This document shows, one piece after another, positions 33,941 to 43,468 of a stretch of 43,468 nt of DNA; the stretch's first letter is position 1; every line of letters starts with the position of its first letter. The position numbers and the translations under genes were made by a program. The notes under the pieces were generated by a model. The model saw nothing but the letters and a program-made list of their open reading frames with translations. It was not told where the DNA came from and did not search any database. Origin of the DNA: Promethearchaeota archaeon (GTDB lineage: Archaea; Asgardarchaeota; Lokiarchaeia; Sigyniarchaeales; SOKP01); assembly GCA_016839745.1 (NCBI GenBank), contig JAEOTS010000147.1, positions 1 to 43,468 on the forward strand. The letters run 5' to 3'.

Positions 33941-34726
33941 TTAAAACATTCTATTATGTAGTTCTTTTACAAAATATGTTGCTACATTTTCAGAAAAAGT
34001 GTTAGGGCCAAAACCAGCATCATATCCTAATTCTTTCGCAAGTTCGTTTGAGATCCTAGGACCACCGCAAATTAGCACGATTTTATCTCTTATCTCTTCA
34101 GCTTCTAGTAGATCGACTAGATTGGTTAAATTTCTCACATGAATATCTTTCTGAGTTACAGTTTGAGAGACAAGAAGCACATCGGCATTCAAATCTAATG
34201 CTTTTTTTACGAAAACTTCGTTTGAAACTTGACTACCAAGATTATAAGCTTCAATCATTTCGTATCTTTCTAATCCATAATGCCCGGCGAACCCCTTTCT
34301 ATTCATGATCGCATCAATACCAACTGTGTGTGCATCTGTACCAGTTGTCGCGCCTATAATTATTAATTTTCGATTCAATTTTGTTTTAATGTAGTCATCT
34401 ATTTCTTCCATCGTCATAGCTTTTGTTACAATAGATTCAACTTTTATTTTAGTATAATCAATTGAGTGTTTAAGACTTCCATATAGCACGAAATATGTGT
34501 ATCCCTTATCTAAAGGTACACGATATGCTACTGAGGGTTCTTCTATCCCCATCTTTTTGGAAAGTTCTAATGCTGCAAATAAAGCTTTTTCTCCGTCATC
34601 TACAGGAAGAGTGAAACTAATTTGAATCTTTCCATCGTTCATCGTATCTCCGTAAGGTTTGATTTTAGTTAGATCCAAATTCTTGTCAAATTCTTTCTTT
34701 TCTGTAGAATACTGTCCACCACCCAT
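33941..34726 (-). CDS. kamE: Lysine 5,6-aminomutase beta subunit (B12-binding)
   Basis: KPYGDTMNDGKIQISFTLP, DAHTVGIDA (DxHxxG), KGFAGHYGLERY, VSQTVTQKD. Confidence 0.96.
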   Translation of the reverse strand: MGGGQYSTEKKEFDKNLDLTKIKPYGDTMNDGKIQISFTLPVDDGEKALFAALELSKKMGIEEPSVAYRVPLDKGYTYFVLYGSLKHSIDYTKIKVESIVTKAMTMEEIDDYIKTKLNRKLIIIGATTGTDAHTVGIDAIMNRKGFAGHYGLERYEMIEAYNLGSQVSNEVFVKKALDLNADVLLVSQTVTQKDIHVRNLTNLVDLLEAEEIRDKIVLICGGPRISNELAKELGYDAGFGPNTFSENVATYFVKELHNRMF

Positions 34727-36294
34727 TAATTCTCGCCCCCTAAGTTCAATTCTTTTGACATGATTTCCAAGAAGGGGTTAAAATATTTGTTGCTTTTGAG
34801 AATAACGCCGTCTAATCCTTTCCCACCACCAATTGGTCTTTTTATCTGTGCGAAGATCCCTTTTTCAATTGTCTTGAATAACCCTTCCTTTTCAATCTTG
34901 GTTAGAAGTTCAAGAGCTTTATTTAATACTTCGCTTGCGCGTTGCTGTATTATTCCCCCTTCCTTAAATGTGATCTCGTCTCCTAAATCTTTCATATTTT
35001 TAAAAATATAACGCGCGTTTTCAATGGATAAAGCCCGATCTGACATGAATGGTGTGTGAATTGCTTCCGTTAACATTCCTAGTAGGTGAATTCTCTGGTT
35101 TGTGAGGATAGTAATAATGTTAAACAATGCATCTTGTACGTGACCTTTAAAGATGTTTCCCGTCATGTATTTTGTAGGGGGCATGTATTTTAACGGAACA
35201 TTTGGGAAAATTTCTCGAGCCATTTGCGCTTGGGCGAGTTCAAAGATGAAACCATTCTCCAAATCAGGATTCATCTCAAATGCATGTCCTAAACCCATTT
35301 GCTCTTCACTTAATCCGGCTAATTTGGCAAATTGCTCGTTAATGAATTGCGATGCGAGTACTGTATGTGCCGCTTCATACGCGTCATCTGTGGTAAGATA
35401 ATTGTCCTCGCCAGTATTGATAATTGCACCTGCATAAGCATTTATCATCCTTGAAAAATGTTGATCAACCATCGTTCTTTGCATGTTTATATCCCGAAAT
35501 AAAATTCCATACAACGCATCGTTTAGCATCATATCAACTCTCTCGAAAGCGCCCATGGCAGCAATTTCGGGCATACAAAGTCCCGAACAATAATTAGTGA
35601 GTCTTATATATCTACCTTCTTCTTTACTCACTTCATCTAAAGCGGACCTCATTAGACGGAAATTTTCTTGAGTGGCATAAGTCCCTCCAAAACCTTCTGA
35701 TGTGGATCCATAAGGCACATAATCTAATAAACTCTGCCCCGTAGATCTTATTACCGCAATGACATCTGCACCTTGTCTTGCTGCAGCTTTTGCTTGAACA
35801 ACATCCTCAAAAATATTACCAGTAGCAACAATTAGATAAATTAACGGTTCACCTTTTTCCCCGTAAGTATGAATTAATTCTTCTCTGTTTTGTTTGTTTC
35901 GCTTGATAATATTCAGATTTTTCTGAATTATAGAGGATAAAGAATTTTTTATTTCGTTGACGTTGTCTAAAGGATGCTCTGTCATGTTTAATTGTTCTTG
36001 AGAGACCATTTCTGCAATATTTTGGGGCGATTTATGAGTATGCAAAATAGTATTTCCAAGGTATAGAGCAATACCATTATTAAGTAATCCTGATTGTTGA
36101 ACGTGATCTACTACAATATTGGGTAATGGTACTCCAAATTCATCAACCCCATCGATCCCTAATAATCTACAAATAGTTCTTTCAATTGTAGTAGTCGTGT
36201 GTTTATCTATAAACTTTTGCGTATCGATAACTATATTTCTCGCTATTTTTCTCGCACTTTCTACTATTTTAAAATCCAAATTTAATTTATTCAT
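34726..36294 (-). CDS. kamD: Lysine 5,6-aminomutase alpha subunit
   Basis: IVATGNIFEDVVQA, RSTGQSLLDYVPYG, NYCSGLCMPE, YMPPTKYMTG, GMLTEAIHTP. Confidence 0.96.
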   Translation of the reverse strand: MNKLNLDFKIVESARKIARNIVIDTQKFIDKHTTTTIERTICRLLGIDGVDEFGVPLPNIVVDHVQQSGLLNNGIALYLGNTILHTHKSPQNIAEMVSQEQLNMTEHPLDNVNEIKNSLSSIIQKNLNIIKRNKQNREELIHTYGEKGEPLIYLIVATGNIFEDVVQAKAAARQGADVIAVIRSTGQSLLDYVPYGSTSEGFGGTYATQENFRLMRSALDEVSKEEGRYIRLTNYCSGLCMPEIAAMGAFERVDMMLNDALYGILFRDINMQRTMVDQHFSRMINAYAGAIINTGEDNYLTTDDAYEAAHTVLASQFINEQFAKLAGLSEEQMGLGHAFEMNPDLENGFIFELAQAQMAREIFPNVPLKYMPPTKYMTGNIFKGHVQDALFNIITILTNQRIHLLGMLTEAIHTPFMSDRALSIENARYIFKNMKDLGDEITFKEGGIIQQRASEVLNKALELLTKIEKEGLFKTIEKGIFAQIKRPIGGGKGLDGVILKSNKYFNPFLEIMSKELNLGGEN

Positions 36295-36341
36295 GTGAAC
36301 TTCATCTCTAAAGATAATTTTAATAATCTAATGTCTAAATT

Positions 36342-36353
36342 ATAAGTTGTCAC
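36342..36353. repeat. Left 12-bp direct repeat ATAAGTTGTCAC (insertion boundary)
   Basis: Identical to 41206-41217 in the last codons of kamB. Confidence 0.8.
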
Positions 36354-36785
36354 TAAAAAAAATTAAAAAAAAATTACTGAGGAGTGCATTCAAACTTCTT
36401 TCCGTTAATTCTGTTAATGTGTTGATCGTTTATTCATTTTTTTTACTTTTTTGCTTCCTAGCGATTTTTTTGTTGCGATTAAATAATATCCGTGAGTCAT
36501 TTTTTATCATTATCCTAATCTTTGATCTGAAAATTCTATTAGGAATTATTTACCGATTTACTTCATTTGTAAATAAGGTTACTCATCTTCCATTTCATCA
36601 ATATCTTTTTGACATTCTTCACATATAAAAAATATAGAGAAATTCCAGAAATGTGTTGCTAATATATCCCGTTATTTCCTTCCTAACGGAAAATAACCCC
36701 ATAACCAATATTTTATTAAATTAGGTGGCCATTTTACTTTAATCCGTTTAGCACAGATAACGCAATATATTTTACACATAATTAC

Positions 36786-37073
36786 TCAATCGTCTTTTAC
36801 TGTCTTATTTTTATTTAATATCCTTTCACGGTATAAATCTTTCTGTTCCCTTTTTTCTGCTTCTGAAAGGTTTTCAGACGCATCAAATTTTTCTATAACC
36901 GTTGTCAAAAGAATTTCTACCTCATTATCCTCTCTGCGATAAATATGAAGATCTCGACCCAAACTTCCAAATACATAATTGAGTAGAAACTGTCCAAGCC
37001 TCTGATCAGGATAACGACTCCAAGCTCGCTCCAGCAATTGGCAAACCCTTTTAATCCTTTTAGGATCTCTCAT
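36786..37073 (-). CDS. Small hypothetical protein, MRDPxRI...W..PDxRLGQ family (DUF1040/YihD-like, often seen in phages)
   Basis: MRDPKRIKRVCQLLERAWSRYPDQRLGQFLLN. Family recognised from memory. Confidence 0.7.
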   Translation of the reverse strand: MRDPKRIKRVCQLLERAWSRYPDQRLGQFLLNYVFGSLGRDLHIYRREDNEVEILLTTVIEKFDASENLSEAEKREQKDLYRERILNKNKTVKDD

Positions 37074-37204
37074 ATTAATTATTAATATTTATTAAGTTAT
37101 TTAATTTATAGTCTGATTTGACAATCTGATTTGTAATGATGATAACCTCAAATCATTTTTATATAATATTTTAAATTTTTGAATTCAAAAGTTGATAAAA
37201 TATA

Positions 37205-37834
37205 TTATTCCAAATCCTTTTCTTTTCTAACCTGATTGATTCGTAAAATAACAGATACATGAGTTAGAATTGAAATTGAAATTAAGCATACTGGAATTGC
37301 CCAATCTGTAAAAAATGCACAAATTCCTGCTAAAAACACAAGAAATAGCCTTGTGTCTCGTCCTTGAATTGTTCTGGAAAAATTAATACCTTCTTTTAAC
37401 TCTACTTTAGCGGCAGTATAACTTATTGAATAGGCTCCTATAATAGTAATTATTCCTAATAAAAAAGCATGTGTAATCAAAAGGACATTAAGAGAGTAAA
37501 ATGTAAGGCCTAAAAATATAAAAACATCAACATATCGATCCATTACAGAGTCAAAGAAACCCCCAAAAAAAGAAGTTCTCCCATTGGCACGGGCTACTTC
37601 CCCATCAGAACCATCAATGATACTTGATATTTGGACAAGGATTCCTCCCATAATAGGAAAATTCATACAAAATAATATTGAACTGATAATCCCAGTTAAA
37701 GCTGATATAATAGATATTAAATTTGGGTTACAATTTGGCCAAAAATACAGAATTAAACTTGTTAATGGACGAGAAAAGTGTCTGTTTATGTATTTTGAAA
37801 CCAGACCATCTCCTTTTGCTGGCATTTCTCTCAA
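37205..37834 (-). CDS. CDP-alcohol phosphotransferase, di-myo-inositol-phosphate-phosphate synthase (DIPPS)-type
   Basis: GDGLVSKYINRHFS, PNLIS, QISSIIDGSDGEVARANGRTSFFGGFFDSVMDRYVD, GRDTRLF, resembling the DIPPS domain of archaeal IPCT/DIPPS. Confidence 0.85.
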   Translation of the reverse strand: MREMPAKGDGLVSKYINRHFSRPLTSLILYFWPNCNPNLISIISALTGIISSILFCMNFPIMGGILVQISSIIDGSDGEVARANGRTSFFGGFFDSVMDRYVDVFIFLGLTFYSLNVLLITHAFLLGIITIIGAYSISYTAAKVELKEGINFSRTIQGRDTRLFLVFLAGICAFFTDWAIPVCLISISILTHVSVILRINQVRKEKDLE

Positions 37835-37903
37835 TTATTTACTTATAATATTATTTATTTAGGATTACTAAAATTTTATTGGATTTAATATCTTTATGAT
37901 CGT

Positions 37904-38710
37904 GTGATAGGAATTTCAATTCGTGCTAATTGGGATTTTGAAAAATTTTTAAATTCAATAATAGACTTGAATATTGATTTCTGTGAAATTCAGCTAGATA
38001 ATCCCATATTTAAATTCCAAAAGCATCAAAGCAAAGCTAAAAAACTTATTGCTAAGCTATATTCAAAAAACTTACAACTTTCATTCCATTTATCATTTAT
38101 TGATTTAAATATTGCTTCATTAGATAATAAAATACGGTGTTATTCAAGTGAAATACTGAGAAAAGAAATAGAGCTTATAAAAACATGGAAACCTCTTTAT
38201 GTTGTTGTACATACTGGAAAGATTAGTGAAACTTTTTATAATATCCCTTCAATAAAAGAACAGGCTCATAAACAACAAATTAAAACAATATCAGAATTAA
38301 TAAAAACCTCTAGCTCTTATTCAATACCATTTGCGATTGAAAACCGGCAAAAATCATTAACAAGTGGTTTGATTGAAAAATTAAGTGATATTCGGTATTA
38401 CAATTGTATTTTCCCTTCTTTATGCTTCTTACTTGACATAGGACACCTTAATACCTTTTATCTTGACTCTAACGCATTGATAGAAGATATTAAACTTATT
38501 TGTAATTTCCCTACAGTTGGAATTCACTTATCAAACAATTTTGGGAAAGATACACACGGAATTTTAGAAGAGGGAACAATTCCTTATATAAAATTGTTTT
38601 CTAAAGTACAAAATCTAAAAAACACACACCTAATAATTGAAAATAGATCATTGAAAGACACTTTACAAAGTTTAGATTTTTTATATAATAAAGTTATAGG
38701 AAAAACATAA
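37904..38710 (+). CDS. Sugar phosphate isomerase/epimerase (xylose isomerase-like / AP endonuclease 2 TIM barrel)
   Basis: SFHLSFIDLNIAS, VVHTG, AIEN, LDIGH, IHLSNNFGKDTH, LIIE. Confidence 0.82.
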   Translation: MIGISIRANWDFEKFLNSIIDLNIDFCEIQLDNPIFKFQKHQSKAKKLIAKLYSKNLQLSFHLSFIDLNIASLDNKIRCYSSEILRKEIELIKTWKPLYVVVHTGKISETFYNIPSIKEQAHKQQIKTISELIKTSSSYSIPFAIENRQKSLTSGLIEKLSDIRYYNCIFPSLCFLLDIGHLNTFYLDSNALIEDIKLICNFPTVGIHLSNNFGKDTHGILEEGTIPYIKLFSKVQNLKNTHLIIENRSLKDTLQSLDFLYNKVIGKT

Positions 38711-38986
38711 TAAAATATATTACAAATAAAAAATCCCTTTTTTATTTAAATTATTATTGTTAAAACAACTTCTTCTTTATTCTAATTAAATTTTTTTTTT
38801 AACTTGTTAAATTAAAACTAAAACTTATATAATTTTTAATCTTATTAGAATTACAAGTGAATAAGTAATTTAAATATGAAAGAATTTTAAAAATGTTTTT
38901 GTAGATTTTTAGAAATATAAAGAGTAATGTTTTGCGATTATATTTACTTGGTTATGGTAAAAATCATCAACAAGAAGTAAATTTTT

Positions 38987-39143
38987 GAAATTTCAGTAAT
39001 CTTAATCATTTTCCTTATCTACAATTTATAAAGAGGATTATAGTGATAGATAATAATAAATTAGAAATTTCAGTAATCTTAATCATTTTCCTTATCTACA
39101 ATTTATAAAGAGGATTATAGTGATAGATAATAATAAATTAGAA
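38987..39143. repeat. 77-bp perfect tandem duplication spanning the RBS and first codons of the IPCT gene
   Basis: 38987-39063 = 39064-39140, plus trailing GAA. Confidence 0.95.
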
Positions 39144-39938
39144 GGTTTAATTCTAGCAGCGGGTTATTCTAGCCGATTTGAATTTAAAGATAATAGATTT
39201 AAAAAGTATTTTTTAAAATTAAATGATTCGAATATTTTAGGATATATTATCGCTGGTATGAGTAAAACAGGAATAAAAAAAATAAAGATAGTGACAAGTG
39301 AAATATTTAACAAATTAAAACATAAAAAAAGGGTATTTAAATCTGTAGCTCGATCAGGAATTGATCTAAAAAATCTTGAATTATCTTTTATTGAAAATAA
39401 GATACCAGAGAGAGAAAATGGATACAGCCTTTTTTTAGGTCTTAATACAATTTCCTCAGAATATACTATACTTACGATGGCTGATCATATTTTTTCAAAA
39501 AATGTTTTTTCTAAAATGATAAAGAACTATAAAAAAAAAGATATTCTTTTAGCAACTGATCCAATGGATAATAAAGGATATTACGACAAGGAGGATGCTA
39601 CAAAAGTATATGGAGAAAATTCTTTTATTATTAAAATTGGAAAGGATTTAATGAATTATAACCGATTAGATATGGGAGTATTTATTTTGAAGACTAAAAA
39701 AATTAAAAAAATTAGTAAGGAAGTTGAATCCAATTTTCGTAAATTTGGTGTGTCAGACATTGTTAGATCAGCATTAAATTCAGATTTAAATATTGGTTAT
39801 TCTGATTTTCCGAATACAATTTGGCTAGATATTGATGATCATAAAAAATATCGTCAATTAAAAAGACTTTTTAATAAAACTTCTAGCCTTCATCCTTTTG
39901 CTCTTAACACGAAACCTACTGTGGTGAATTATTATTAG
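39120..39938 (+). CDS. CTP:inositol-1-phosphate cytidylyltransferase (IPCT)-like nucleotidyltransferase
   Basis: ILAAGYSSRF, PERENGYSL, LTMADHIFS, DATKV, KIGKDL, DMGVF, WLDID. Adjacent to inositol-phosphate synthase. Confidence 0.83.
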   Translation: MIDNNKLEGLILAAGYSSRFEFKDNRFKKYFLKLNDSNILGYIIAGMSKTGIKKIKIVTSEIFNKLKHKKRVFKSVARSGIDLKNLELSFIENKIPERENGYSLFLGLNTISSEYTILTMADHIFSKNVFSKMIKNYKKKDILLATDPMDNKGYYDKEDATKVYGENSFIIKIGKDLMNYNRLDMGVFILKTKKIKKISKEVESNFRKFGVSDIVRSALNSDLNIGYSDFPNTIWLDIDDHKKYRQLKRLFNKTSSLHPFALNTKPTVVNYY

Positions 39939-41088
39939 TAAAATTAAAATTGCTATTGTTGGACTTGGTAATTGTGCTTGTGCTTTAATTCAAGGAATCC
40001 AATTTTATAGAAATAAAACGAACAAGGATGCTATTGGCCTAATGCATTGGGATATTGGTGGATATTTGCCAAGCGACATTGAAGTTGTTGCAGCTTTTGA
40101 TATAGACCGTAGGAAAGTTGGAATAGATGTATCGATAGCTATTTTTCAACCACCCAATTGTTCTAAAATATTTTGTAAAGATATCCCCAAAACGAAAGTT
40201 ATTGTTAAAATGGGTAAAATTTTAGATAGTTATGCAGATCATATGAATTATTACAATAAAGAATATACATTTATTTTATCTGATCAAAAAGAATCAACGC
40301 AAGAAGAAATAATTCAAGAATTAAAAACTTCAAAAGCAGATATCCTTATAAATTATCTTCCAGTAGGCTCTGAAAAAGCGGCTAAATTTTATACGGAATG
40401 TGCTTTAAAAGCAAAAGTAGGTTTCATTAACTGTATGCCTGTTTTCATTGCGAGCAATCCAATATGGGCTGAGAAATTTAAAAGGGATAACATACCAATA
40501 ATTGGTGATGATATTAAGTCTCAATTGGGAGCAACAATAGTCCACCGAGTATTGACAAATCTTTTTAAAAAACGAGGTGTAAAACTCATGCGTACATATC
40601 AACTTAATACTGGTGGGAACACAGATTTCTTAAACATGCTTGATAGACACAGACTCGCTTCGAAAAAACAATCAAAAACCGAAGCTGTTCAATCACAAAC
40701 AAAAACTAGATTGAAAAATGAAAATATTCATATCGGTCCAAGTGATTGGGTTCCATGGCAAAGAGACAATAAGATATGCTTTATTAGAATGGAGGGAAAC
40801 ATATTTGGCGACATTCCAATAGATATCGAATTACGCCTTTCGGTAGAAGATTCTCCTAATTCTGCGGGAGTGGTTATTGATGCTATAAGATGTATAAAGT
40901 TGGCTCTGGATAGAAATCACGGTGGTGTTTTATATAATCCTTCTTCATACTTTATGAAACATCCACCAATACAATATAGTGATGATGAAGCATTTCAACT
41001 GACAGAAGAATTTATAAATGTTTTCTCAGGAGCAAAAGTTTCTTTAATTGATAAAATGATTAAACAAAATGAACAAAGTGCCGATTAA
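39934..41088 (+). CDS. ino1: myo-Inositol-1(3)-phosphate synthase, non-canonical ATT start
   Basis: NYLPVGS, GDDIKSQLGAT, YQLNTGGNTDFLNM, SKTEAV, VEDSPNSAG. The frame extends upstream of ATG 40042 through SKIKIAIVGLGNCA to ATT codons after GGTGA. Confidence 0.92.
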   Translation: MSKIKIAIVGLGNCACALIQGIQFYRNKTNKDAIGLMHWDIGGYLPSDIEVVAAFDIDRRKVGIDVSIAIFQPPNCSKIFCKDIPKTKVIVKMGKILDSYADHMNYYNKEYTFILSDQKESTQEEIIQELKTSKADILINYLPVGSEKAAKFYTECALKAKVGFINCMPVFIASNPIWAEKFKRDNIPIIGDDIKSQLGATIVHRVLTNLFKKRGVKLMRTYQLNTGGNTDFLNMLDRHRLASKKQSKTEAVQSQTKTRLKNENIHIGPSDWVPWQRDNKICFIRMEGNIFGDIPIDIELRLSVEDSPNSAGVVIDAIRCIKLALDRNHGGVLYNPSSYFMKHPPIQYSDDEAFQLTEEFINVFSGAKVSLIDKMIKQNEQSAD

Positions 41089-41197
41089 TAACTTTAGGAA
41101 AATTTGGATTCTTATTCCACCAAGAAGAATAGCAGTACCATAAATATAATGGCTCTTTTACTTCTATTAGAAGTTAGAGTCTAAAAGGTAGTGCACC

Positions 41198-42256
41198 TTA
41201 AAGGCATAAGTTGTCACAAGGACCAAGATTGAATATAGGAACGTTAATTCTCTCTTGTAATGACCTTATGAACTGGTTATTTTCAAATTCATACCCGAGT
41301 GGTGAAGTGTGATTAATTGTAATTGCAATTAAATTAATTCGATCTAGTACCTTTAAGCAACCCCCCTTTTTTATAAATTTATGGAAAACTTGCTTACTAA
41401 TAAATAATTTAGTAGGATCTGTGGCGATTACAGTTAAATTTTTTACTTTTTTATTGGATATGTATTCATCTAAAATGCTATCGGTAATCGCTCCCTTTAT
41501 TACCAGGTATTTAGTGCCTTTTGTTAATTGGTTAAAAATTACTTTAGACGATCCTAAAGCCGTAGATTCTCCTAACTTATTAAACGAATCATCATCATTT
41601 ATAATTCCTACCTTAGCAGTGAGCAAGATTTCGTTACTGATTTTTCTGATTTTATCGTCCTTAACCAACTCTAAGCTAAACAAATTGTAAATATGGGATG
41701 TTAAATCGACAACCCTTTCCATGTTTCTGGACACAGAAGCTCCCGTAGATAGGATGGTTGCATCAGAAATAATTGGCGTTGCAAACGATCTTCTATCAAA
41801 TGCACCATCGATAAAAATCACTTCGCAACCTACTTCTTTCATATCGTTACATAATTCCTTTAATTGTTTATTCATTGATGGGCCTGCTAGCTCAATATAT
41901 CCTTTATTCTTTGCTTTGTAAATGTTGATGTTCCCAAGTGGCGTAGTGAAATCAGTATTTTTAACAAATTCGGTTTCTATATCGCTATTCTTCAATGATT
42001 GCTCTGCTGTTGCAAAAATTGTTCCCTTTTCAATTATTATCTTAGGTTTTGGAAGTTCTGTAATCGCATCGTAAGGTTCTCCATCTCGACCAATGGAAGT
42101 TACTCCAATTGTATGCTTCTCCCTTAACAGATTAATAATGTGATTTAATGTGGTGGTTTTACTTACATTTTTAGCTAAACCAATAATTGATATGACCTTA
42201 TACTGCTTAATAGCATTTATTAAAAGAGCAGGAAATTCTTCATTGCCAGACAACAT
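41198..42256 (-). CDS. kamB: Lysine 5,6-aminomutase reactivase-associated protein KamB-like
   Basis: SIIGLAKNVSKTTTLN, TSIGRDGE, PKP, TPLG, AGPS, IDGAFDR, STGAS. Directly downstream of kamA. Confidence 0.8.
   Translation of the reverse strand: MLSGNEEFPALLINAIKQYKVISIIGLAKNVSKTTTLNHIINLLREKHTIGVTSIGRDGEPYDAITELPKPKIIIEKGTIFATAEQSLKNSDIETEFVKNTDFTTPLGNINIYKAKNKGYIELAGPSMNKQLKELCNDMKEVGCEVIFIDGAFDRRSFATPIISDATILSTGASVSRNMERVVDLTSHIYNLFSLELVKDDKIRKISNEILLTAKVGIINDDDSFNKLGESTALGSSKVIFNQLTKGTKYLVIKGAITDSILDEYISNKKVKNLTVIATDPTKLFISKQVFHKFIKKGGCLKVLDRINLIAITINHTSPLGYEFENNQFIRSLQERINVPIFNLGPCDNLCL
41206..41217. repeat. Right 12-bp direct repeat ATAAGTTGTCAC (insertion boundary)
   Basis: Identical to 36342-36353. 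Confidence 0.8.
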
Positions 42257-42375: not shown

Positions 42376-43468
42376 TTATTTGCTAAGTTTTTTCCTTCTT
42401 AAATTTCTTTCAAGATCCTCAGGTTCTATAGTCATTTTTTGGCCACTTAACAAAGCAGAAACTCCGATTTGTTGTTCGCAATCTTCGCAATGACACTCTG
42501 GTATATAGTTCGTGGGTTCTTCGTAGGTTGTAATAACACCTTCAAAATTCCTTAAGACAACTCTAGTATTTCCTTGTGAGATGGTATAATCGGGCATCAC
42601 GGGTATTTTACCTCCACCACCTGGGGCGTCAACAACATAGGTAGGAACGCACAAACCTGATGTGTGGCCTCTTAATCCTTCGATAATTTCGATTCCTTGT
42701 GCCACACTTGTCCTGAAATGTCCTAATCCTACGGATAAATCGCACTGGTAAATGTAATATGGACGAACTCTAATTTTTACCAGTTCGTGTACTAACTTTT
42801 TCATTACATGTATGCAGTCATTTACTCCCCGTAATAAGACTGATTGATTTCCAAGGGGAATCCCAGCATTTGCGAGCATTTCACATGCCCTTGTAGAATC
42901 TTCAGTTATCTCGTTCGGATGGTTAAAGTGGGTATTAAACCATATAGGATGATATTGTTGAAGCATTTCACATAGATCAGGAGTAATTCGTTGAGGCATA
43001 ACAACGGGGCTTCTTGATCCTAGTCTAATGATTTCTACATGAGGGATTTCCTTTAAACTTATTAAAACATTCTCTAACAATTTATCAGAAATAAGCATAG
43101 CGTCTCCCCCAGATAACAAAACATCTCTAATTGAGGGCGTTTCTTGGATATAGTCTATACATTTATCTATCTGATCTTTTGGAGGTGCCTTATCGTGGTG
43201 ACCCGCGAACCGTCTTCGAGTACAGTGTCTGCAGTACATCGAACAGTTTTCCGTTACTAAAAATAATACTCGATCTGGGTATCTATGAGTTAAACCGGGA
43301 GTAGGACTATCAACGTCTTCGTGAAGTGGATCATCTAAATCAGCGGGATATCTTATAAGCTCGTGAATTGTAGGAATTGCTTGTTTACGAATTGGGTCGT
43401 ATGGATCGTGGGGATCGATTAAGGATAAGTAATAAGGGGTGATAGCCATTCTCATCTTTTCCATAATA
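42376..43468 (-). CDS. kamA: L-lysine 2,3-aminomutase (radical SAM, PLP), 5' end beyond the window
   Basis: [46 protein letters not shown], Zn-binding CHCEDC. Frame open to the window edge. Confidence 0.96.

Follow-up and report, generated by a model that had tools for sequence, protein, structure and literature searches.

A 4.86-kb islet between kamB and kamD in a Promethearchaeota genome as the probable fossil of a cargo-carrying TnpB insertion sequence

The DNA analyzed here (the window) comprises the 43,468 nucleotides of contig JAEOTS010000147.1 from the Promethearchaeota archaeon assembly GCA_016839745.1. Within it, a segment of 4.86 kb, termed the islet, separates kamB from kamD in a lysine-fermentation gene cluster and carries a module of inositol-phosphate genes. 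This segment is probably a fossil element that derives from a TnpB insertion sequence (IS) of IS200/IS605/IS607 style and carries cargo, a reading to which a probability of about 0.62 was assigned. The element is no longer able to move. An earlier annotation, made from the letters of the window alone (the sequence-only reading), had described the islet as free of mobility genes. This description was dropped because the right ~100 bp of the islet consist of a tnpB 3' fragment and an IS right end (RE) that terminates at the junction, and because the target carries a WTAT motif. The apparently mobility-gene-free islet thereby becomes a traceable event, in which the ends of an IS200/IS605-type element would bracket a whole inositol-phosphate pathway. 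Coordinates of all features are given in Table 1.

A lineage-specific insertion in the kamB/kamD junction

Relatives of the source genome (n = 41) were searched for KamB, which was present in 24 genomes. kamD directly followed kamB at every relative locus long enough for judgement, and the two genes were also adjacent in more distant congeners and in other genera. In the four closest congeners with sequence spanning the junction (G002, G008, G015 and G014; KamB identity 83–85%), the junction read ..CCTTGTGACAACTTATAA, followed by 45 nt and the kamD ATG, with a single copy of the 12-mer ATAAGTTGTCAC in each. The same empty site was present on two metagenome contigs (Ga0114922_10026956 and RCNB010006543.1). 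It has the form that the sequence-only reading had predicted for relatives, with KamB ending in CDNL* and a 45-nt spacer. By this comparison, the islet is a lineage-specific insertion in an otherwise conserved kamB/kamD junction. The order kamA-kamB-kamD-kamE is supported as ancestral. Family matches (Table 1) confirm the identity of these four genes as a lysine 5,6-aminomutase (kam) cluster.

At the occupied site, the coding strand of kamB ends TGT GAC AAC TTA TGC CTT TAA. The C-terminus of KamB has changed from ..CDNL* to ..CDNLCL*, a gain of Cys and Leu, and the earlier description of an insertion at the stop codon that left KamB intact with two added residues was correct. The 12-bp direct repeats that had been proposed to bound the islet were exact at both positions. 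No further matches at ≤1 mismatch were found in the window (0.2 expected), and the entire 3.53-Mb assembly contained only these two occurrences, both at islet junctions. The islet was present in one copy in the source assembly. Its GC content, which the same reading had proposed to compare, was 27.8% versus 32.3% for the genome (0.85th percentile of equal-sized random chunks).

The source assembly (G000) is a metagenome-assembled genome of 192 contigs and 3.53 Mb (89% complete, 5.8% contamination), which is the point that would speak for an assembly artefact. Both flanks lie in one conserved operon that resumes to the base, and an assembler would not be misled by a repeat of only 12 bp. Deletion of an ancestral islet in all relatives would mean that the same deletion recurred independently, since the junctions of all six empty sites are identical. 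An artefact or an ancestral islet is hardly credible.

Ends of the islet and junctions of the family

The right end was compared with DNA of the genus. Positions 41100–41207 were 73–78% identical to six tnpB 3' ends at six places in five congeners, and the homologous stretch in these genomes consisted of the gene 3' end and the following ~65 nt. An intact tnpB is absent from the islet. About 12 codons are left at 41105–41143, ending ..WILIPPRRIAVP*. The RE region carries a hairpin that is conserved among the copies; an Rfam search of 36000–41500 at E≤1 gave no match. The RE of the islet terminates in GCAT at 41204–41207, which is exactly the islet boundary. Every family RE ends in GCAT, and similarity among all copies stops directly after it. 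The family was assigned to the TnpB type because its only intact copy, a 2.74-kb element in G009 (C414; L048:3583-6324), encodes an open reading frame (ORF) of 839 aa that matches Pfam OrfB_IS605 and Cas12f1-like_TNB. The first ~220 residues of this ORF had no family match. Neither the window element nor the family copies have inverted repeats at their ends, and flank and element have no more than an AT dinucleotide in common. The absence of terminal inverted repeats and of an intact integrase or transposase gene from the islet had been stated correctly before.

For the left end (LE), positions 36357–36432 matched two places in G049 (BLAST E 3e-7 to 6e-10). One of these places is at positions 60–117 of the LE of copy G049:C56, which has the same RE as the window, a 5'-truncated tnpB and a foreign gene that replaces the 5' part of tnpB. 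The start of its LE was set by comparison with its empty site. The first ~55 nt of this type of LE are missing in the window, and other copies have different LEs. A large ORF behind an LE-like motif in G049:C121 was considered as TnpB-related and was rejected, as no relation to TnpB was found.

Junction types were determined by comparison with empty sites in relatives. WTAT ended 7/7 left flanks (window, G009, G049:C56, G049:C48, G042, G050 and G001). Left junctions were resolved in five copies, namely the window, G009:C414, G049:C56, G050:C236 and G049:C48. Three of these are seamless: the intact G009:C414 (..TTTATAT / element ..GCAT / TAATGAGAC), G049:C56 (..ATAATAT / element ..GCAT / TGTTCTTC) and G050:C236 (..GATAT / element ..GCAT / ACTATAAT). 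For G001:C253 and G042:C57, the RE joint was located after ..AATAT and ..GTTAT of the empty site, respectively. In the window copy, ..AAATTAT is followed by 10 nt of retained target and then by the element, which ends ..GCAT / AAGTTGTCACAAGG. G049:C48 independently shows the same anomaly: its left flank ..ATATAT continues with 9 nt that belong to the right flank (AACCTTTTA), and then come the element, GCAT and AACCTTTTATAAC. In the sister copies, overlaps measure 2, 2, 2 and 11 bp, with 0, 0, 0 and 9 nt of target retained beyond AT. Retention of 9–10 nt was found at 2/5 resolved left junctions and started at the motif each time.

By its junctions, the family inserts in the style of IS200/IS605 or IS607 elements; the shared AT would also fit the 2-bp crossover of a serine recombinase. 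Comparison of the window with this junction pattern resolves the 12-bp repeat into the AT overlap and 10 bases of retained target. On this reading of the junctions, the right joint is canonical and the left joint is non-canonical, and the repeat is neither an att core nor a fixed-length or classical target duplication.

A CIME (cis-mobilizable element)-like islet lacking its integrase would have arisen if a tyrosine or serine integrase encoded elsewhere had recombined a 12-bp att core that the kamB 3' end shared with a circular element. Exact 12-bp direct repeats at the segment bounds and a target at a gene 3' end speak for this origin. Apart from the two junctions, the genome lacks the 12-mer, and no integrase lies nearby. 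The right boundary is the GCAT end of the IS family to the base, and other copies have overlaps of 2 or 11 bp at unrelated targets. As the islet boundary coincides with both the IS end and the motif, an att-type event is disfavored; the GCAT coincidence and the WTAT motif would both have to be chance, and such an origin was judged clearly improbable.

A DDE-type cut-and-paste transposon with a target-site duplication of 11–12 bp was also considered. The repeats measure 12 bp in the window and 11 bp in G049:C48, and DDE transposons are known to harbor TnpB genes (PMC10691335). Three sister copies show no duplication beyond AT and the overlap length varies among copies, which contradicts an enzyme that duplicates a fixed length of target. 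Terminal inverted repeats are lacking; a weak 9/11 similarity, seen by eye, is internal at the left end. No linked DDE transposase was found. A DDE origin is very unlikely.

Two sister copies show further rearrangements. G042:C57 (L047:4340-4660) contains a first RE, 23 nt of flank, a second partial tnpB 3' end with RE and a copy of the left-flank motif (AAGTTAT), an arrangement suggestive of several rounds of breakage and repair at a single site. G049:C48 contains duplicated LE parts. For the 185–211 nt between its retained bases and its LE homologue, a donor was sought, and only low-complexity matches were obtained.

Mobilizing enzyme and origin of the left joint

For a mobilizing enzyme, the islet, the source genome and genomes carrying the family were searched. 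No recombinase was among the family matches of the islet genes. A search of G000 gave no TnpB and no further copy of the islet ends. TnpB matches numbered 9–15 per genome in the G049 clade, and none were obtained in G000, G014 and G008. Cas1 (PF01867), a conceivable transposase in Asgard archaea, was not found in G000, G049, G009, G042 and G050. A serine recombinase (PF00239) was found only in G049, G009 and G042; the copy in G009 is broken by a stop codon and that in G042 is a short fragment. The G049 gene belongs to an IS607-type pair (G049:C312:713-2285), in which it lies directly upstream of a different tnpB of 433 aa. It represents the only candidate transposase type in genomes carrying the family.

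The right joint would have been made by a transposase of the family acting in trans, either a Y1 enzyme or a serine recombinase. The latter is suggested by the shared AT dinucleotide and the IS607-type element in a congener. The left joint would have been made non-canonically, with the first 10 target bases left beside the motif. Retention of 9–10 nt is not predicted by Y1 or serine-recombinase chemistry, and two routes are proposed. In route (a), an RE-anchored, LE-independent "one-ended" insertion would have come first; the free motif end would then have been extended by brief fill-in synthesis and end-joined to donor DNA. In route (b), the empty site would have been cut by TnpB guided by omega RNA and repaired from an occupied copy; the trimmed end of the non-target strand (the TAM-proximal end, TAM denoting the target-adjacent motif) would have been kept, and synthesis would have resumed inside the LE. 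The similar retained lengths (9 and 10 nt) slightly favor route (b), and the lack of TnpB in the G000 clade slightly favors an old event or route (a).

One-ended transposition of HUH elements (IS91/ISCR) uses one correct end and carries adjacent DNA of variable length. Route (a) resembles it in the single correct end and the adjacent DNA carried along, with a different enzyme family. Homing of IS200/IS605 elements guided by TnpB and omega RNA is a model reportedly due to Meers and colleagues (in 2023), with work of Karvelis and colleagues (in 2021) said to bear on it as well. The motif and the right flank of the empty site would form the exact target of an omega RNA from the window RE, and the retained 9–10 nt start at the motif, where the trimmed non-target strand would end after cutting. 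Unlike in that model, no TnpB gene was found in G000, and homing is normally seamless. Tentatively, the retained bases may be read as footprints left when TnpB, guided by omega RNA, cleaved an empty site and an occupied copy served as repair template; this reading is rather unlikely. If it were true, RNA-guided homing would have spread a transposon remnant with a four-gene metabolic module into an Asgard operon. If the retention reflects either guide-RNA-directed cutting or one-ended insertion, it provides a sequence signature that can be searched for elsewhere.

Several findings weigh against a derivation of the islet from a TnpB IS. No gene for tnpB, Y1 (PF01797), serine recombinase (PF00239) or Cas1 was found in the 89% complete G000 assembly, and Y1 (PF01797) was not found in G049, G009, G042 and G050. 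The identity of the RE remnant to known copies is just 73–78%, and the LE assignment consists of ~60–80 bp of AT-rich similarity to two places. Neither an occupied allele with a full LE nor a donor locus was found. A 10-nt duplication is not given by the canonical chemistry of these families and was seen in 2/5 resolved left junctions. The cargo may also have entered an already resident IS instead of traveling with it.

As a rival, a two-step origin was considered. A small TnpB IS would have inserted canonically at TTAT/AAGTTG, and illegitimate recombination would later have put the module and orf95 in place of most of tnpB and of the LE-proximal part, with the 10-nt copy arising in that repair. 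The homology to the module and the homology to tnpB meet at ~41100–41112, within the tnpB reading frame, and the join looks like an illegitimate deletion or fusion. This join of the G014-type module to tnpB has the form of a microhomology-type junction, and the sister copies are heavily rearranged (the second partial RE and flank pieces of G042:C57, the duplicated LE parts of G049:C48); both points would suit a replacement in place. An internal replacement leaves the copy of the right-hand target at the left junction unexplained, and no congener carries a small IS at the kamB/kamD site. Such a two-step history was considered unlikely.

For comparison with known systems, elements of the IS200/IS605 and IS607 groups with TnpB were considered, including IS1341-type elements with a solo tnpB and PATE (palindrome-associated transposable element)-like elements. 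Cargo of IS200/IS605 elements was formerly unknown and is carried only rarely (Altae-Tran et al. 2023, PMC10691335). Solo TnpBs lie within related ends and are probably mobilized in trans, and Asgard TnpBs have unusual partners (PMC10691335). The window element resembles these groups in its asymmetric ends without inverted repeats, in an RE that overlaps the tnpB 3' end and contains hairpins, and in its insertion directly 3' of WTAT. Most copies of its family lack a target duplication, and a transposase in trans is presumed, as for these groups. It differs from them in that tnpB is reduced to ~12 codons and replaced by ~4.7 kb with five genes, in the truncated LE, and in the ten target bases kept at the left joint. 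Unlike for IS200/IS605, no Y1 was found in the searched family-carrying genomes (G000, G049, G009, G042 and G050). With these differences, the locus fits a decayed, cargo-bearing member of the TnpB IS with an atypical left joint.

Cargo and neighboring genes

Table 1. Positions of features in and around the islet (window coordinates).
Feature	Position	Strand	Remarks
kamE	33941-34726	-	OAM_dimer and B12-binding domains
kamD	34726-36294	-	Pfam 897 bits; now 4.9 kb from kamB
TTAT target motif	36340-36343	+	TAM-like, WTAT; directly left of the insertion point
Left 12-bp repeat	36342-36353	+	AT from the motif and 10 nt of retained target (AAGTTGTCAC, 36344-36353) at the LE side
Truncated LE region	36354-36432	+	A8TTA9 tract, then motif homologous to G049:C56 LE positions about 57-117
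orf95	36786-37073	-	Small protein; no Pfam, NCBIfam or PHROG match
CDP-alcohol phosphatidyltransferase, DIPPS/AIPS-like	37205-37834	-	Pfam PF01066; best PDB match 4mnd DIPPS domain, E 8e-22
Xylose-isomerase-like TIM-barrel protein	37904-38710	+	Pfam PF01261; PDB 3wqo (MJ1311), E 1e-13
Exact 77-bp tandem duplication	38987-39143	+	Tandem Repeats Finder (TRF) 2.0 copies, 100% identity; reaches from upstream of the IPCT-like gene into its first codons
IPCT-like nucleotidyltransferase	39120-39938	+	Pfam NTP_transf_3; best PDB match 4jd0 (nucleotidyl transferase), then 2xme and 4mnd IPCT
Myo-inositol-1-phosphate synthase (MIPS)	40042-41088	+	Pfam PF01658 124 bits; TIGR03450 384 bits versus cut-off 638
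TnpB insertion-sequence remnant	41100-41207	+	Last ~12 tnpB codons plus structured RE/omega-RNA-like region
kamB	41198-42256	-	NCBIfam KamB equivalog 386 bits versus cut-off 210; intact
Right 12-bp repeat	41206-41217	+	AT of the RE GCAT plus first 10 nt of the original target (kamB 3' end)
kamA	42376-43467	-	577 bits versus cut-off 525; extends past the window edge

The four inositol genes (MIPS, IPCT-like, DIPPS-like and TIM-barrel) occupy the place expected for tnpB and bear out the inositol module of the sequence-only reading. All NCBIfam equivalog cut-offs were missed by the cargo genes. The halves of NF041135 scored 110 (IPCT) and 128 bits (DIPPS) versus a cut-off of 580, and AIP synthase scored 118 versus 180. 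For the IPCT-like and DIPPS-like genes, the PDB matches support fold and family only. MIPS, an IPCT-like cytidylyltransferase and a DIPPS-like transferase are clustered as in the IPCT/DIPPS pathway of hyperthermophiles (A. fulgidus 4mnd, 2xme) and as in the proposed CDP-inositol route to inositol lipids. Unlike in the hyperthermophile system, IPCT and DIPPS are encoded by separate, divergent genes in the window, a TIM-barrel gene like MJ1311 is added, and scores lie below the equivalog cut-offs. Judging from these families, the product is probably derived from CDP-inositol, either di-myo-inositol phosphate or an inositol lipid.

A search for the same cargo at other loci, as had been suggested, was successful in G014 and G048. 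The module (37190–41110) has a counterpart in G014 with 84–91% nucleotide identity, flanked there by genes of 453 and 319 aa. These two flanking genes are adjacent in G008, G015 and G000 (contig C77), where the counterpart of the G014 locus is empty, and ~70 nt apart in G002. The 77-bp unit that is duplicated in the window is present as a single copy in G014 (overlapping BLAST pieces). In G048, the MIPS 3' end is 94% identical and is followed by yet another gene, a third context. MIPS of the islet type (≥75% identity) was found in 6/42 congeners. The module is accordingly regarded as accessory and located at differing loci, given the different contexts in G014 and G048 and this restricted distribution. 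A MIPS paralogue ~40% identical to that of the islet is present in 39/41 other congeners; in G000, none was found. The sole MIPS of G000 may be the islet gene, or the paralogue may lie in an unassembled part of the genome (89% completeness). The predicted inositol-phosphate or inositol-lipid capacity of these Asgard archaea is exchangeable between species. At the left end of the module insertion in G014 (L049:10470-10585), an apparent C-terminal fragment of an oxidoreductase gene was observed, and this insertion seems to have carried foreign flank DNA as well.

The small gene orf95 had been called phage-type. A PHROG search of orf95, orf93 and the TIM-barrel gene gave no match, but the first ~55 residues of orf95, a small domain at its N-terminus, were present at 34–56% identity on 19 contigs predicted as viral in IMG/VR (L162-L180). 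Homologues of orf95 with 84–86% identity were present in metagenomes.

Despite the islet, kamD retains the conserved 45-nt upstream spacer. This spacer holds an TTATTAAA element ~33 nt ahead of the ATG, and kamDE may for that reason have kept a promoter of its own. A T9AAT8 run on the minus strand (36355–36373) would end transcripts running from the islet to kamD. Insertions at gene junctions are tolerated in this lysine-fermentation cluster. A second variable slot, at which no obvious flanking repeats were seen, is the gap between kamA and kamB, which measures ~95–130 nt in G000, G008 and G004. The gap contains a gene for a 692-aa protein without assigned function and a UbiA prenyltransferase gene in G015 (L024:9611-12773) and G006 (L026:1065-5308), with an additional DNA methylase gene in G006. 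In G002 (L022:3621-6227), it is occupied by genes for a major facilitator superfamily (MFS) transporter and a zinc-dependent alcohol dehydrogenase (Zn-ADH).

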